A DNA stretch of 56,569 nucleotides from positions 1 to 56,569 of the forward strand of contig JBBAWM010000005.1 of assembly GCA_040397175.1 (NCBI GenBank), written 5' to 3'. Shown here piece after piece: positions 21,033 to 56,569 of the stretch. Position 1 is the stretch's first letter. Every line of letters begins with the position of its first letter. The position numbers and the translations under genes were made by a program. This DNA is from Candidatus Limnocylindrus sp. GTDB taxonomy: Bacteria; Chloroflexota; Limnocylindria; Limnocylindrales; Limnocylindraceae. The notes under the pieces are model-generated. The model searched no databases. It saw only the letters and a list, made by a program, of their open reading frames with translations, and was not told the DNA's origin.

Positions 21033-21995
21033 TTATGGCAGGGTCACCGTTGGGTGGAGCTGCGCCACGATGGCGCGGAACGCCGCCGCGATCCGTGGTC
21101 CAGGTGTTGAGACTAGGTCGCCATCAATCGGTCGAAGCGCACCGCTGACTACCGCGGGGATGGTGCCCCAGCCTGGCCGCGCCGCTACCGCCTCGGCCGT
21201 TACGCCGTAGGCGGCATCGCCGAGCAGAATCACCGCAGGGGCCGCCGTCACCAGCGCCTCGAGCGAGATCTCGTAGACGCCGTTTGTGCCGCTCGTGATC
21301 AGATCCCCCCGTGCGGCACCGATCAGTTCGGCGGCGTAGTCATCCGGGGCAAGGCCGTAGATGGCGCCGGACGCATCGATCTCGTAGAAGACGCGTACGG
21401 GTGGCGCGCTGGTGACCAGCGCCGTGATTGCAGCGATATCTGCTTTGGCGGCGGTGATCGCGTCGGCGGCGGTGACGCTGGCACCCGCCGCATCGCCGAT
21501 GAGCTGCAGCGTGGTGTACACACCGCTCACGCTCTTTGGATCAAGGGTGACCAGGGTGATGTTGGCAGCCTTGAGTTGCGTGATCGCATCGTCAGGGGTG
21601 AAGCCCGATCCACCCACGAACACCAGGTCGGGGTTGAGGGCGATGATCGCTTCGACGTTGGTGCCGTTGTAATTGGCGACCTGTTTTGTTGCGGTGAAGG
21701 CGGCGGGGAGGCAGCTGCAGGCGGCAACTCCAACGACGCTTGTGCCGAGGCCCCACTGATCGAGTGACTCAACGCTGGCGGGAGTGAGTGCCACGATGCG
21801 CTGCGGCTTCGCGGCAATCGTTACCGACGTACCGGCATCGTCAACAACGGTCCGCGGATACTGCGCCTCCACAATTGTGGTGGGGCTCACTGGTACCAGT
21901 GAGTTGGTGACACTGGCGCATGCGCCAACAAGGAGTGCTACGAGGAGCAGTAGGGTGAATCGGAAAAACTGGTGCGCGCGAACGAAAGCAGTCAT
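21033..21995 (-). CDS. btuF: Cobalamin-binding lipoprotein (BtuF-like)
   Basis: Lipobox VGAC; PQRIVALTP; NVEAIIALNPDLV; PGPRI. Confidence 0.82.
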   Translation of the reverse strand: MTAFVRAHQFFRFTLLLLVALLVGACASVTNSLVPVSPTTIVEAQYPRTVVDDAGTSVTIAAKPQRIVALTPASVESLDQWGLGTSVVGVAACSCLPAAFTATKQVANYNGTNVEAIIALNPDLVFVGGSGFTPDDAITQLKAANITLVTLDPKSVSGVYTTLQLIGDAAGASVTAADAITAAKADIAAITALVTSAPPVRVFYEIDASGAIYGLAPDDYAAELIGAARGDLITSGTNGVYEISLEALVTAAPAVILLGDAAYGVTAEAVAARPGWGTIPAVVSGALRPIDGDLVSTPGPRIAAAFRAIVAQLHPTVTLP

Positions 21996-22033
21996 AGCTT
22001 CCTCCCTTGCCTCGAGGGCCTAAGCGTTTTTAT

Positions 22034-22125
22034 GCCGCGTGTCCGACGACCGGACTTATGGGAGTTACTCCCAATAACCGTTGCGGGACAGTGCTGGAAT
22101 CTCACCAGCTTCGCGTCCACGCGGC
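22034..22125 (-). ncRNA. Cobalamin riboswitch (compact form)
   Basis: Minus strand GAAGCTGGTGAGATTCCAGCACTGTCCCGCAACGGT...AAGTCCG B12-box-like elements, closed by a GCCGCGTG/CACGCGGC helix, upstream of btuF. Confidence 0.9.
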
Positions 22126-22236
22126 GTTGCTGCGGGGACTCTATCACCTGGCATTGGGCTGTGCAGACGCGGCGAATACGCGCGTGGTGCGAGAGTGCGC
22201 CTCCGCCCTCGCCCCCGCGTTCACCTTGGAGGGAGC

Positions 22237-22965
22237 ATGGTCGGAGTAGTTCTCCTCGCCGCAGCAATCACCTTCACACCGCCATCGGAAGGCGCAGTGG
22301 TCTTCGCCAATCGCACGGCGTTCGCCGAAGGGTGTACGGGCACCGTCAACACCCTCCCTGACCGATTCGCGCGGCAGGCGCGCACGGCGTTCGCTGGGCT
22401 CGGCTGGGAGGTTGGTGGGGCCGTTGGGCCGACCTTTACGCGCCGGGCCGTAGTAGCCGGGGCGGCCTCCGCCGCCTTCTACGTGCATAGCCACGGCGAT
22501 CTCTATTGGGAGACAAAGGCCGAGAGTCGCGTCGGGGGCTTTCGCGCCGATGCCGGGCTCTGCCTCGGCGCGCCGATCATCTTCCCCTCAGAGATCGCAG
22601 CGATGCGACGTGGCGCACCGCCTGCATCGCTCGTGTACATCTCGAGCTGTCATAACGGCGAACGCGCCTCGCGACTTCCCGCCGCATTCGGCATCGCCCA
22701 GCGCAAGGTTCAGGGTCTCAATGAGCCCGACTCCTTCTATGTCGGCTACGTCGGCATTGCATGGCAGGGCGTCGCGCTTCGTTTCGAGCGTGCCTTCTGG
22801 CGCGGACTTCTCGATGGTGTACCAGCCGGTGCAGCGTTTGATCGCGCACTCCTCGTTGCCTACGACCCAGAGCACCTGGTCCCCGAGTGGTGGGGAGGCT
22901 ACAGCCACATGCCACACGCGCGAACGACCGACCTCCCCGATCTCGGAGCGCAACGGTATGTGTAA
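22237..22965 (+). CDS. Putative exported caspase/gingipain-fold (clan CD-like) cysteine peptidase; start may be GTG at 22195
   Basis: Hydrophobic N-terminus; AFYVHSHG and LVYISSCHNG His-Gly/Cys motifs after beta-strands; FYVGY...FERAFWRGLLDG..AG.AF resembles the CHAT C-terminal region. Confidence 0.5.
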   Translation: MVGVVLLAAAITFTPPSEGAVVFANRTAFAEGCTGTVNTLPDRFARQARTAFAGLGWEVGGAVGPTFTRRAVVAGAASAAFYVHSHGDLYWETKAESRVGGFRADAGLCLGAPIIFPSEIAAMRRGAPPASLVYISSCHNGERASRLPAAFGIAQRKVQGLNEPDSFYVGYVGIAWQGVALRFERAFWRGLLDGVPAGAAFDRALLVAYDPEHLVPEWWGGYSHMPHARTTDLPDLGAQRYV

Positions 22966-23776
22966 GGTTCGCTGGTCGTTGGCTCTCTTGGTTGGGCTCG
23001 TGGCTGCGTGCAGCGCACCAGGAGCAGCAATCGCACCGAGCGACACTCCGCAGTCGATACGCGCTGGCCTGAACTTTCGGCCCATCGCGACCGTGGCCAC
23101 GACACTCGTTGAGCCACTTGAGTTACGCGGTTTAGTGGCCACGCCAATCAGCGTGGTGCGCAGCGACGCTGGTGAGCAGCGCATCCGTCAGCTACTCGTC
23201 GGCGCGGGGGGTATTGAGGCGTTGCGTGTTGAGAGTGCGCTCGACGGATCGCTTCGCCTGATCGCAAAGAGTGGTGTGCCCTTTGAGGGCGGTGGGCTCA
23301 CTCCAAGCGTTGCCGCTGCGCGCGCGCTCCGTCACCTGCTGCGGGTAGGGCTCGAGATCCCGGCTGGCGGTCCATCGGTGCGCGCGGCCGCCGGGCGCAC
23401 GCTCGTCACCTGGACCCGGCAGGTTCGCGGTGTACCGGTGCCCAACGACGGGACACGCGTGGTGCTCAACGGTGCTGGCGCGCTCGTTGGCATCTCGATT
23501 GAGGAGTCACCCCTCGCCGCCCCGCCGGCGCGCATCGTTCCGGGCGAAGGGGCGGTGCGTGCCGCAACAGGCTTGCTGCCGAGTGGCACCTCAGTCGATG
23601 AGAGTCCCGTGCTGGCCTGGGTAGCCCCGACAGAGGAGGGCGATGAGTTGACCCTTGGGCGTGTGCTGCGCCGCCTCGCTTGGTGTGTGCGCGGCGAGTT
23701 TCGTGATGGGACCGAGTTTGAGATGCAGCTGGACGCTGGAAGCCTGGCGCTACTCGGGTGGGATGGAGCGCCGTAG
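22958..23776 (+). CDS. Lipoprotein with FTP- and PepSY-like propeptide domains, no catalytic domain
   Basis: Lipobox VAAC; WTRQVRGVPV..DGTRVVLNGAG (FTP-like); EGAVRAA...PVLAWV...RLAWCV...QLDAGSLALL (PepSY-like); overlaps the upstream gene. Confidence 0.6.
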   Translation: MCKVRWSLALLVGLVAACSAPGAAIAPSDTPQSIRAGLNFRPIATVATTLVEPLELRGLVATPISVVRSDAGEQRIRQLLVGAGGIEALRVESALDGSLRLIAKSGVPFEGGGLTPSVAAARALRHLLRVGLEIPAGGPSVRAAAGRTLVTWTRQVRGVPVPNDGTRVVLNGAGALVGISIEESPLAAPPARIVPGEGAVRAATGLLPSGTSVDESPVLAWVAPTEEGDELTLGRVLRRLAWCVRGEFRDGTEFEMQLDAGSLALLGWDGAP

Positions 23777-26256: not shown

Positions 26257-27093
26257 TCAGCGCCCGAAGAGGCGCCTGAGCATGCGTGGCACCGAGATGC
26301 TGCTCCGGCGGATCACGAGCCGCTCCTCAAATTCGGCCTTCACGCTGTACCCGAGTGAGGTGTAAACGGCGATAGCGGCAGCGTTCTCGCGCTGCACATT
26401 CAGCACCACTTCGTCACAGAAGGCGAAAAGGGCGTCGGTCACCGCCGAGGTGTTCGCATGCGCGTAGCCGTTGCCGCGCGCCCCCGACGCCGTCAGCACG
26501 TTCCCCACGACGGCGATGCGCTCGCGTCGACCGACCACATGGGTGCCGGCGGCCGCAACCAACTTGCCGTTGCGATGAATGCCGCGATAGACCCCCTCAG
26601 CAACCGCGAGTGGCGGGAGCCAGGCGGCAAAGCCCAGCTGGTAGAGGTGATTCAGCGCTGGCGCATCAGATGGGATCAGCGGCACCACGAGTGCGGCGGC
26701 GGGTCCGGTGTACGGCAGGAACTCGGTGCGCGTGAGGCCCATACGCAGCATGGGATTGATCTTCTCCGTCTCGTAGGTCAGATCAAGGATGCGGTCGCCT
26801 CCAACAGGGGTAGGCACCCAGGCGGCACGCGGACGAATCCCGTGCTGCAGGATCGTGGCGATCCCCTCTGGTTCGCCATACAGATGGAGCGGCTGCGGTG
26901 CCCATCCCGAGTACTCCATGCCGAGTGCAATGGGGGTTGCCCCGCGCCGAGCGACAAAGCAGCGCGTTCGCGGAAACTCACCGTCATCGAGATCGGCAAG
27001 GGCGTGTGCGGTGATCCAGCGGTCACCAGTGATGAGCGATCGCACCAGCTCACGATCACGCGTCGCCGAAACCTCGATCGGCATCGCGCTCAT
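26257..27093 (-). CDS. GNAT family N-acetyltransferase
   Basis: AAAGTHV, GNVLT..ARGNGYA acetyl-CoA motif, NAAAIAVYTSLGY. Confidence 0.85.
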   Translation of the reverse strand: MSAMPIEVSATRDRELVRSLITGDRWITAHALADLDDGEFPRTRCFVARRGATPIALGMEYSGWAPQPLHLYGEPEGIATILQHGIRPRAAWVPTPVGGDRILDLTYETEKINPMLRMGLTRTEFLPYTGPAAALVVPLIPSDAPALNHLYQLGFAAWLPPLAVAEGVYRGIHRNGKLVAAAGTHVVGRRERIAVVGNVLTASGARGNGYAHANTSAVTDALFAFCDEVVLNVQRENAAAIAVYTSLGYSVKAEFEERLVIRRSSISVPRMLRRLFGR

Positions 27094-28313
27094 CAGTCGA
27101 TCAGCGTGATGCCGTCAAGTGAGAGAAGCTCAACACGCGGCGTTGCAACCTGCACGCTGCTCGTCACGCCACGCGCGGCGAATGGCAAACCGCGTTGCGC
27201 CGCCGCGTTGTTGACGGCGTCAACACGCTTGGCCAGTTCGGCGCCGGTGAGATCGGTCGCTGTGGATCCGGCAACCAGATAGACAGGGACGCCCGAGAAA
27301 AGTGCAGCAGCCGCAAGGCCGACACCACCCGCTGGCACAACAGCGAATCCCGCTCGGCTCACCGCATCACTGCCAAGGACCAGTGCGCCGATGGGGCCGT
27401 CGGCACTCGCGATCTCGCTAGCGAGTTGACCATCTTCGAGGAGTCGCGGGGTGAAGCCAGCGCGCACCGCGTCAGCCGCGTCAATCGCGCCGAGCCGAGT
27501 TGCCCCGCGCACGTCAACGGTGGGACCAGCACCAATCGTGATGGTGCGCGCGCCAAGGTGGCGCAGCGCTTCATGAAGTGGGGCGAGATCGCCCCACGCG
27601 GTGGCGCCGAGGCCAGGCCCGCTGGCGATCGTGGTGCCGCGCGCAAGGCCCGCCCGTTTGAGCGCTGCGGCGATGCGATTGCCGTAGGCGGCGCGCTGGC
27701 CGAGCTGCGCTGCCGCACGGGTGGCGATGGCGACGTCGAGTCCCTCACCTGCCAACGCAACCGGGAGGAGTGTGTCGAGTTCGGCGTGGAGAGAGCCCGC
27801 AAGCGGAGCGGCATTACGAAGTGCAGCGGCGGCGGCGTGCAGACGTGCAATGCGACCGCCTGCAGACCCAACACTCGCCAGGGCGAGGGCGAAGGCGGCG
27901 GACAACCCTCGGATTGGACCGGGGGCAATGGCATCGACGGCCAGGAGTGCGGCGATGCTACTTGCGCTCGTGGCCCGGCGCTCGGCGATCACCGCTGGGA
28001 GGGCGCGGACGTCGAGCACGATCACCGCTCCGGCTTCATCACGAATGGGCGAGGCGAAGGCGGGCTCGGCCGCCGATGCATCCGCTTTGGTCAGTCCCGC
28101 ATCGCCTGGCATATCGAGGTGCGTCTCGGCGGCGCGGCGACGCGTTGGCTCTGCACCAGTCTCGCGCGCGGGCCCTTGCAGGTCGGCGCTGAGCGCCTCG
28201 GCCTGACCGCGCAGCGCGCCAAGTGCACCGAAGAGTGAGCCGGCGGTGGCTGCACCGTCGTTGGCGATGCTGCGAAGGAAGGTTCGACGATCGCTTGCGG
28301 GGCGCTTCGCCAT
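27093..28313 (-). CDS. Degenerate MtnA/eIF2B-fold protein (probable pseudo-isomerase) with an N-terminal extension
   Basis: VIVLDVRALP, LVLGSDAV, LAAAALFSGVPVYLVA and TPRVELL..DG align by eye to MtnA, but active-site motifs are substituted. Confidence 0.6.
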   Translation of the reverse strand: MAKRPASDRRTFLRSIANDGAATAGSLFGALGALRGQAEALSADLQGPARETGAEPTRRRAAETHLDMPGDAGLTKADASAAEPAFASPIRDEAGAVIVLDVRALPAVIAERRATSASSIAALLAVDAIAPGPIRGLSAAFALALASVGSAGGRIARLHAAAAALRNAAPLAGSLHAELDTLLPVALAGEGLDVAIATRAAAQLGQRAAYGNRIAAALKRAGLARGTTIASGPGLGATAWGDLAPLHEALRHLGARTITIGAGPTVDVRGATRLGAIDAADAVRAGFTPRLLEDGQLASEIASADGPIGALVLGSDAVSRAGFAVVPAGGVGLAAAALFSGVPVYLVAGSTATDLTGAELAKRVDAVNNAAAQRGLPFAARGVTSSVQVATPRVELLSLDGITLID

Positions 28314-28320
28314 GCGGCGA

Positions 28321-28842
28321 CTAGAAGGCGATGATCGCCGAGACGATGCCGTCTGGGAGTCGCTTGCGACCACCAAGGACGGGGAGCTCTGCCAAGAAGC
28401 TGATGCCAACGACCGTCGCGCCGAGCTGCTCAACGAGTTTCACGGTGCCAGCGACGGTGCCGCCCGTCGCAAGGACGTCGTCGACGATCACCACGCGCGC
28501 GCCCTTCTCGAGCGCGTCGCGATGGATCTCCAACACGTTCTTGCCGTACTCCAAGTCGTACTCCACCGAGATGGTCTCGGCGGGAAGCTTGCCGAGCTTG
28601 CGCACCGGCACAAAACCAACGCCAAGGGTTGCGGCAATCGGCGCGCCAAAGATGAAGCCGCGCGATTCGATGCCGATGATCACGTCGGGCTTCAGCCCAC
28701 GGATCGGTGCCGTCATCGCCTCGAGGGCAGCGGCGAAGGCCTCGCCATCCTGCAGGAGGGTGGTGATATCGCGAAAGACAATCCCCTTCTTCGGAAAGTC
28801 GGGGATCGTTCGAATCTTCGAAGAGAGCTGTTCTGGGGTCAC
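28321..28842 (-). CDS. apt: Adenine phosphoribosyltransferase
   Basis: IPDFPKKGIVFRDIT, ESRGF, RKLGKLP, YDLEYG, VDDVLATGGT. Confidence 0.97.
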   Translation of the reverse strand: MTPEQLSSKIRTIPDFPKKGIVFRDITTLLQDGEAFAAALEAMTAPIRGLKPDVIIGIESRGFIFGAPIAATLGVGFVPVRKLGKLPAETISVEYDLEYGKNVLEIHRDALEKGARVVIVDDVLATGGTVAGTVKLVEQLGATVVGISFLAELPVLGGRKRLPDGIVSAIIAF

Positions 28843-55467: not shown

Positions 55468-56569
55468 TCACCGTAGTTGAGGATAGGGAGCACGCCCCGC
55501 ACGGTCAACCCTGCCCCCCGCACGAATCCCTTGTGGCACAGCCTGTGCCTCTCCGCACAACGGGAGCACGACCAGTGGGGAGCCCTTACCCCCCAGAAGT
55601 GCAAGTCTTCCCTGCCACACCCGCAGGATCCGAGAGACCCGCCTGGCCCACCACGTTTGAACTCCGCTTGGCATGGCAATCGAGGGGGTCCCAGCAGCCA
55701 ACATCGGCACGACGACCCGCTCGGCAACGGGCGGTGTGCCCTCAATCACGCTCGTGGGCACCGGTAGAGGGGCAACTGGGCGGCTCGCCGCCATCGCCAG
55801 CGCCCAGAGGCGATAGCCACCTCCAGCCGACCCCGCCCGCTGGTGCACCACCCCCCGCACGATAATCTCGCTCTTTGTTACAAGAAGCGCCTGGGGAATC
55901 TGGCCGAAGAGGCTCGCCCCCACTCCCACCAGGAGCTCGCCTCCATCTGGGAGCCGCAGGGTCAGGCTGCGCGATCCGCCGGCGAGATCCTTGATGGCGC
56001 CGCTGACGGTGCCTGCAACCTGGATGAGCTGACCCTCCCAGCGCTCCCATGCCCAGGGCCCAGCGGTTGGTGGCGCGACCTCGCGTGCGCTGCGTGGTGC
56101 GGCCCAGCCATCGATTTGTGCGGCGGTCGTGGCGACGATGGTCAGCGCCTGCCGCCGAAGGAGTAGCGTCCCGGAGATCATCACGACATCGCCTCGAGCC
56201 AGGTCGGTGTCCCCACTCTGGGCGAGCACAAACACGCCGATACCCGTCGCCTCATCCTCCACGCAATACAGCCGATCCTCGGCTAACTCCCCCGGTGCAG
56301 CTGAGATTGTTCCGCGCATGGTGACTGTGCTGCCCGGCGACGTACCACGCACCTCCGCTGCGCTTGCGACGCGCGGCGTTGGTGTTGGCGAAGGTTGCGG
56401 CGTCGGGGTCGGAGCCGGAGTAGGGGTAGGTGAGGGCACCGGAGTCGGCGTCGGAGTTGGCGTCATGGTTGGCGCCGGTGTCGGAGTGGGTGTTGGTGTT
56501 GGTGTTGGTGTTGAGGTTGGCGCCGGTGTCGGAGTGGGTGTTGGTGTTGGTGTTGGTGTTGAGGTTGGC
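55468..56569 (-). CDS. C-terminal part of a probable exported protein: Pro/Thr linker plus two OB-fold-like domains (start outside window)
   Basis: PT repeats, then [32 protein letters not shown] and [10 protein letters not shown]. Confidence 0.65.
56467..56569. repeat. Exact 48-bp tandem repeat (at least 2 copies) encoding the PT linker
   Basis: Unit GGTTGGCGCCGGTGTCGGAGTGGGTGTTGGTGTTGGTGTTGGTGTTGA starts at 56467 and 56515, with a third start at 56563. Confidence 0.9.

Follow-up and report, generated by a model that had tools for sequence, protein, structure and literature searches.

Organization of the ORF1-ORF2 locus

The window, that is, the whole 56,569-nucleotide stretch of Candidatus Limnocylindrus DNA analysed here, carries two genes, ORF1 and ORF2, that lie on the plus strand and overlap by 8 bp (Table 1). 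The original prediction had described them as a unit of their own between neighbouring operons, and both proved to be real, with a divergent cobalamin riboswitch and btuFCD operon on one side and the convergent pgm (phosphoglucomutase) gene on the other. We found 78 database homologs for ORF1 and 112 for ORF2, and dN/dS values against seven close loci were 0.09-0.14 for ORF1 and 0.15-0.21 for ORF2; the reading frames are therefore not chance occurrences, and represent genes under purifying selection in a host genome of 1.38 Mb. Named homologs place this host among Candidatus Limnocylindrus/Aquidulcis. In one lake metatranscriptome, contigs cover parts of both ORFs, and the neighbours and the intergenic region alike, a pattern that is no evidence of transcription.

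The start of ORF1 had been placed at a GTG at position 22195. This start was rejected because the closest database relatives are 241-242 aa long and align from the methionine at 22237, and because 22195 falls within the putative -10 box; the gene begins instead at the ATG at 22237, behind a GGAGG. Control of the pair by the riboswitch was also rejected, since the riboswitch lies on the opposite (minus) strand. Elsewhere in the window, a degenerate, Ala-rich IF-2B-like gene (27093-28433, minus strand; Pfam E 0.026) is flanked by a GNAT gene and a phosphoribosyltransferase-like gene.

Table 1. Positions of the genes and other features of the window discussed in the text.
Feature	Position	Strand	Description and basis
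Cobalamin riboswitch of the btuFCD operon	21993..22139	-	RF01482, 71 bits; divergent neighbour, outside the module
Putative promoter	22164..22196	+	Two half-sites (22164, 22175) 11 bp apart; conservation
Ribosome-binding site, ORF1	22228..22235	+	Read from the sequence; kept in the upstream regions of relatives
ORF1	22237..22965	+	242 aa; predicted short signal peptide and caspase-hemoglobinase (clan CD) fold domain
ORF1 candidate dyad	His86, 22492-22494; Cys138, 22648-22650	+	Conservation and fold model
ORF2	22958..23776	+	272 aa lipoprotein; lipobox Cys18 at 23009-23011; predicted YpeB-like three-PepSY fold
638-aa exported protein, 3' part	55468..56569	-	Starts beyond the window end; same promoter motif

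Predicted fold and conserved residues of ORF1

A model of ORF1 was built from a 32-sequence alignment (pLDDT 91.5) and compared with 48,161 chains in a wide structural search. Clan CD folds dominate the top 35 matches, the best being SAVED-CHAT (8tl0; Z 16.4, rmsd 3.1, 181 aligned residues); metacaspases (Z 14.7 and 14.2), DdvA (8rot; Z 13.8), gingipain and legumain (Z 13.3 each), OaAEP1 (Z 13.0) and GPI transamidase (Z 11.7) were also matched, and identity to the top fold matches is 9-18%. Foldseek returned SAVED-CHAT and caspases, in agreement with the wide search, so that the caspase fold foreseen in the original prediction was recovered by both methods. The motifs it had named, AFYVHSHG and LVYISSCH, are both present: His86 follows core strand 80-84 of the model, and Cys138 follows core strand 132-136. 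As also anticipated, these residues are conserved in homologs, His86, Gly87 and Cys138 being invariant in 32 of 32 aligned sequences at 31-83% identity, and His84 is replaced in two of the 32. Cys138, which lay outside the scan pattern, was found in all 80 further loci, where the count for the histidine is circular because that residue was part of the pattern. According to the available text of PMC4357240, assignment to clan CD is based on a His and then a Cys, each following a core beta-strand; the ORF1 model shows a caspase-hemoglobinase fold with the two residues in this order after core strands.

Two further cysteines, Cys33 and Cys109, are invariant in the family and are likely to form a disulfide, which suggests an extracytoplasmic location. 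The signal peptide of ORF1 in the window is atypical (short, uncharged and devoid of a basic n-region in this genus), and larger-genome relatives carry clear signal peptides; ORF1 is likely exported. Most ORF1 relatives of family f2, one of two families of the order Limnocylindrales discussed below, have a C-terminal CxxC, and the Limnocylindrus proteins do not.

Profile searches did not place ORF1 in a described family. ORF1 itself matched no Pfam family, and no CHAT, C14 or C25 profile scored over its curated cut-off in the ORF1 family: CHAT (PF12770) was found below the cut-off in 4 of 28 relatives (best E 0.006) and C25 in 3 of 32 (best E 0.035). Searches of solved-structure sequences with the ORF1 and ORF2 profiles gave nothing significant, SAVED-CHAT being the best relevant match (E 0.56). 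Coronavirus 3C-like matches (E about 0.06) were treated as chance. With its modelled fold and conserved dyad, ORF1 is likely an exported cysteine peptidase, and we consider it very probable that the protein is proteolytically active.

The predicted fold of ORF2 resembles the C-terminal domain of YpeB

The sequence patterns attributed to ORF2, namely the lipobox LVAAC18, RQVRGVPV, AWCV and DAGS, are all present, and the stated absence of an HExxH motif was borne out. FTP and PepSY matches had been expected and were indeed obtained in Pfam, but all of them are weak and below the cut-off (E 0.077 for FTP). The proposed FTP plus PepSY architecture gives way to a YpeB-like one: the ORF2 model (pLDDT 84) best matches the C-terminal domain of YpeB (5boi; Foldseek E 1.8e-8; Z 13.2, rmsd 5.5, 212 aligned residues) over residues 36-272, the whole mature length, whereas the prodomains of M36 (4k90_B; Z 8.3) and M4 (3nqz; Z 7.2) metalloproteases cover only its C-terminal two thirds to three quarters. 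ORF2 is therefore described as a predicted three-PepSY protein, in which three tandem PepSY-type units stand on a membrane anchor with no catalytic domain. YycI (Z 7.5) and YycH (Z 6.8) were matched as well, and the helical bundle domain of YpeB is absent from the model.

The lipobox cysteine is invariant in all 23 aligned close relatives (23 of the 112 database matches). Among 23 larger-genome relatives read by eye, only three have a clear lipobox and the others have a hydrophobic N-terminus instead. The lipoprotein assignment of the original prediction therefore holds for the window and its close relatives, and the type of anchor is lineage-specific; an N-terminal anchor or signal is always present.

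A search for longer forms of ORF2, a weak test, gave none, and hence no M4/M36-type cis fusion. Nor was a fused ORF1-ORF2 form found in an all-protein search, likewise a weak test, in which 30 of 92 long matches were read and 34 scanned. The long matches inspected as possible fusions were frameshift-ridden read-throughs or unrelated low-complexity proteins.

Linkage and distribution of the pair

The two genes had been expected to co-occur, and their linkage is nearly perfect. In 30 of 30 loci, ORF2 is the next gene downstream of ORF1 in the same orientation, with junctions mostly of -13 to +12 bp, and it follows ORF1 in 79 of 80 species-genome loci (the best 80 of 160), the remaining locus ending at the ORF1 stop; these counts, which equally describe the co-encoding of ORF2 with a predicted exported hydrolase as for YpeB, are not independent events, because they come from related genomes with conserved gene order in this region (btuFCD genes near 74 and pgm near 68 of the 80 loci).

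Searches of the class and phylum genomes detected ORF1 in 31 of 201 and 10 of 301 genomes, respectively, all of which belong to families f1 and f2 of the window's order (Limnocylindrales). ORF2 was detected in 35 of the 201 class genomes, including all 31 with ORF1. The class tallies include three unpublished genomes (G091, G106 and G151), which enter only the denominators and the propeller tallies given below. The four extra ORF2 genomes comprise G101, in which ORF1 is gone from the slot and a 3' remnant of ORF2 is left, G143 with a distant paralog, and two marginal matches.

ORF2-like genes without a recognisable protease neighbour occur in G014, G074 and G143. Orphan ORF2-like lipoproteins were observed at L139:2832-3812, L140:2964-3896 and L142:3020-4000, two of them among histidine-utilisation genes. 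In G020 (L141:2887-5341), an ORF2 paralog comes after a secreted gene that is frameshifted and carries His and Cys motifs, and an ECF-sigma-factor-like gene (identified by eye) and a possible anti-sigma gene are nearby; the divergent His/Cys gene was not detected by the ORF1 profile.

An accessory propeller gene and an alternative cassette

In 57 of 59 larger-genome loci, the gene behind ORF2 encodes a TolB/PD40-type beta-propeller lipoprotein (for example L086:7576-8673), as detected with a profile built from 33 of these loci; the other two loci have no room for it. In L104 the propeller is in one frame with ORF2, through either fusion or sequencing error. Neither the window's genome nor any of the 20 Limnocylindrus-type loci that have ORF2 carries the propeller, and ORF2 abuts pgm in all 15 of these loci that reach pgm. 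In G059, G086 and G098 the propeller gene occupies the slot although the pair is missing, so it is accessory.

Five genomes without the pair (G008, G050, G059, G086 and G098) encode another exported protein beside pgm, with a metzincin-like zinc motif and a C-terminal Ig-like part. Examples are L155:3059-4117, L156:3311-4375, L150:3910-5040 and L151:2093-3136; the proteins end in one or two cysteines, and a propeller-like gene precedes the metzincin-like gene in L150, L155 and L156. The first zinc ligand of the family is Asp or His. One of four aligned proteins has the canonical HExxH and three have Asp in place of the first His, so that peptidase activity is uncertain. Database matches are weak (M10, E 0.25; SnpA and MMP2 over the motif, E 0.7-1.8).

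Among the 61 genomes of family f2, the metzincin-like gene is present in 34 and ORF1 in 25. Exactly one of the two occurs in 55 genomes, both occur only in G005 and G038 (distant matches, E about 1e-42), and four have neither; the split follows genera and therefore reflects few events. In G029 neither gene is in the slot, and in G002 the metzincin-like copy is on a different contig from pgm. The lineage-wise swap of the pair with the metzincin-like gene suggests that the slot next to pgm supplies an exported peptidase function.

A conserved putative promoter motif and a candidate co-regulated gene

A half-site with the family consensus G(A/G)TAAG is found upstream of ORF1 in 63 of 76 evaluable loci, a count made without a shuffle control. 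Two elements that were outside the search pattern accompany it: a second half-site 11 bp upstream, with G in 43, T in 37, A in 34, A in 31 and G in 44 of 62 loci, and an extended -10-like TG-n-hexamer 7 bp downstream of the half-site, located at 22188-22196 in the window; transcription would then be predicted to start near 22203. The motif was also found before the metzincin-like cassette in the three loci inspected. Promoters activated by OmpR/PhoB carry an 11-bp direct repeat that ends 10 bp before the -10 box, and the host genome encodes five OmpR-type domains.

A strict form of the pattern has two matches in the window's genome and none in a reversed control. One is the ORF1/ORF2 operon, by construction, and the other precedes a gene whose exported 638-aa product has a Pro/Thr linker and a weak lamin-tail match (E 0.02); orthologs of this gene in G011, G059 and G086 also have the motif. 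This surface-protein gene is thus a candidate for co-regulation, and by analogy we infer that an OmpR/PhoB-type regulator may activate it together with the operon. Four exact patterns matched in 2 of 5, 3 of 5, 3 of 5 and 5 of 5 genomes, with 1, 0, 0 and 1 control matches. Four other pattern matches, before no clear gene or a short one, may be chance, as may a match upstream of recA in one genome (G140, L172:355-1449). Just upstream of the ORF1 ribosome-binding site, larger-genome loci such as L008:1430-1473 have a conserved pyrimidine-rich segment that is complementary to the site and could hide it in a hairpin.

Comparison with DUF6345 proteins

DUF6345 (PF19872) is an Atlas feature neighbour of ORF1 (0.93). 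Like ORF1, it retains His and Cys motifs, and regions that contain an FTP-like stretch are either joined to it or come after it in Chloroflexota. Of 251 phylum genomes, 17 encode DUF6345; most occurrences are within long proteins, and one is a 250-aa gene with a lipoprotein gene behind it. The same two-gene layout was observed at L137:1372-3101 (G412, a 1.0 Mb genome), where a stand-alone secreted DUF6345 gene overlaps a lipoprotein gene. L135, L136 and L138 hold DUF6345-like proteins in which both the His and the Cys motif are apparently missing and an FTP-like region is attached; these are possible inactive forms.

Profile tests did not establish homology of ORF1 or ORF2 to DUF6345 proteins or their partners. 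ORF1 and DUF6345 profiles gave no match in either direction, and the DUF6345 profile had no match in G000 or in 12 scanned genomes of families f1 and f2. When ORF2 was compared with the DUF6345 partner regions, only the short FTP-like stretch scored (best E 0.0018); 18 targets gave E values of 0.001-0.12, with one reversed control at 0.09, and the ORF2 profile did not match L122 or the L137 partner. A shared origin of ORF1 and DUF6345 is accordingly offered as a lead only.

Relationship to known systems

YpeB is encoded in one operon with SleB, co-purifies with it and has been proposed to be its chaperone-inhibitor, its PepSY domains embracing SleB as M4/M36 prodomains embrace their enzymes (PMC13556211, in the part of the text available). 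The original prediction had known of no characterised example of a metalloprotease-type propeptide acting in trans on a cysteine protease. PepSY action in trans is characterised in SleB-YpeB; the principle is therefore already known, and the new part here is the clan CD client. Like the Bacillus system (5boi), our locus combines the gene of a predicted exported hydrolase with a separate gene for a membrane-anchored protein modelled with three PepSY units. It differs in that the client is predicted to be a caspase-fold rather than a cortex-lytic enzyme, ORF2 lacks the YpeB helical bundle and the neighbouring gene is not sleB. M4/M36 propeptides (3nqz, 4k90_B) share with ORF2 the C-terminal two-thirds match and the weak FTP/PepSY similarity, whereas ORF2 is encoded on its own, has an additional PepSY-like unit and has no HExxH enzyme attached or adjacent.

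ORF1 is similar to CHAT proteins, metacaspases (C14), gingipain (C25) and legumain (C13) in its modelled fold and in the order of His and Cys, but it is predicted to be exported as a single domain, without TPR, SAVED or a prodomain of its own. By their defining tests, the pair does not belong to CHAT, DUF6345, YpeB or the M4 propeptides. Prokaryotic caspase homologs with likely signal peptides are common (PMC3501461, available text), and stand-alone double-PepSY proteins were earlier proposed to inhibit unidentified proteases (PMC6393860, available text). A protease gene beside a co-transcribed gene for a dedicated inhibitor is also seen in SpeB-Spi, where Spi is a propeptide analogue encoded next to the cysteine protease SpeB, and in staphopain-staphostatin; those proteases belong to families C10 and C47, and their inhibitors are not described as PepSY proteins in the available text of PMC2873492. 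Among the open-access papers that our searches listed, none was seen to describe a clan CD protease with a PepSY partner.

Interpretation of the pair and alternative explanations

With a little more belief than doubt, we propose that ORF1 is an exported caspase-fold cysteine peptidase bound in trans by ORF2, which would serve at the cell surface both as its folding helper and as its restraint. ORF1 would be exported and meet ORF2 anchored in the membrane; ORF2 would clasp it with its PepSY sheet, aid its folding and keep it inactive or in place until needed; ORF1 could then cut envelope proteins. Provided that ORF1 is active, a chaperone-inhibitor role for ORF2 is fairly probable by analogy with SleB-YpeB and the M4/M36 propeptides. 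The proposal is favoured by the presence of ORF2 in every class genome with ORF1, and by G101, which lost ORF1 and kept the ORF2 remnant. Against it stand the ORF2-like genes without a protease neighbour, the lack of a fused form among the matches inspected, the Pfam matches below the cut-off, the kinship of the genomes behind the linkage counts, the atypical signal peptide of ORF1 in the window, the Asp that replaces the first zinc-binding His in three of the four aligned metzincin-like proteins, and the fact that PepSY-like folds also serve non-enzyme partners, YycH and YycI being among the ORF2 matches.

ORF2 might instead bind ORF1 not to inhibit it but to tether it permanently to the membrane, to activate it or to act as an adaptor for its substrates, in which case the propeller lipoprotein would be the third subunit of a surface protease complex in larger-genome relatives. 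The constant N-terminal anchor or signal of ORF2 and the propeller gene behind it in most larger-genome loci are consistent with this arrangement, as is the YpeB model, which leaves the SleB active site open and implies control by positioning. We consider it unlikely: the same source describes characterised PepSY proteins with enzyme clients as chaperone-inhibitors (PMC13556211, available text), and the propeller is missing from the window's genome and occurs elsewhere in the slot without the pair. The matches to YycI and YycH raise a different possibility, that ORF2 is an accessory sensor of a two-component system, that ORF1 cuts ORF2 or the sensor, and that the pair forms a signalling feedback loop behind an OmpR-type promoter. 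YpeB is a far better match to ORF2, and no kinase or regulator cluster was seen among the conserved neighbours in the 80 loci; we regard this explanation as quite improbable, even with the direct-repeat motif upstream of ORF1, the similarity of ORF1 to DdvA, an extracytoplasmic CHAT-domain anti-sigma protein, and the G020 His/Cys gene and ORF2 paralog near an ECF-sigma-like gene (by eye) in its favour.

A shade less probable again is a transpeptidase or ligase role, in which ORF1 would join exported proteins to the envelope and ORF2 would be the scaffold. GPI transamidase and OaAEP1 belong to the same clan and match ORF1, and the motif-sharing 638-aa gene encodes a surface protein, yet CHAT proteins and metacaspases outscore both enzymes and the slot swap with the metzincin-like protein suits hydrolysis better. 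Strong general synteny and the orphan ORF2 paralogs could also mean that the two genes encode envelope proteins which share a transcript but are not directly linked in function, or that ORF1 is a non-catalytic scaffold. The invariant dyad, the short or overlapping junctions and the joint presence and loss of the two genes make this very improbable.

Returning to the trans-bound peptidase, the prediction that ORF1 represents a new clan CD family, exported and served by a YpeB-like partner of its own, is well supported; the pair most likely works, by analogy, like SleB-YpeB, and its most likely job would be to process or turn over surface proteins of the cell itself. We put forward a broader picture tentatively, and doubt it, as a whole, somewhat more than we believe it: an exported caspase-fold family gated in trans by a dedicated three-PepSY protein would be one of two interchangeable envelope-protease cassettes, share a response-regulator promoter with a surface-protein gene, be kept in lake genomes of 1.1-1.4 Mb and form part of a wider partnership that includes DUF6345.

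The pair is small, soluble once the anchors are removed, and directly testable. If our reading is true, PepSY repeats would be a general-purpose clamp on unrelated exported hydrolases, from metalloproteases and a cortex-lytic enzyme to, now, a caspase-fold protease, and clan CD would gain a minimal bacterial family whose members are exported and whose regulator has a gene of its own. The retention of the pair in streamlined freshwater Chloroflexota, together with the metzincin swap, would point to a routine, so far undescribed envelope function.
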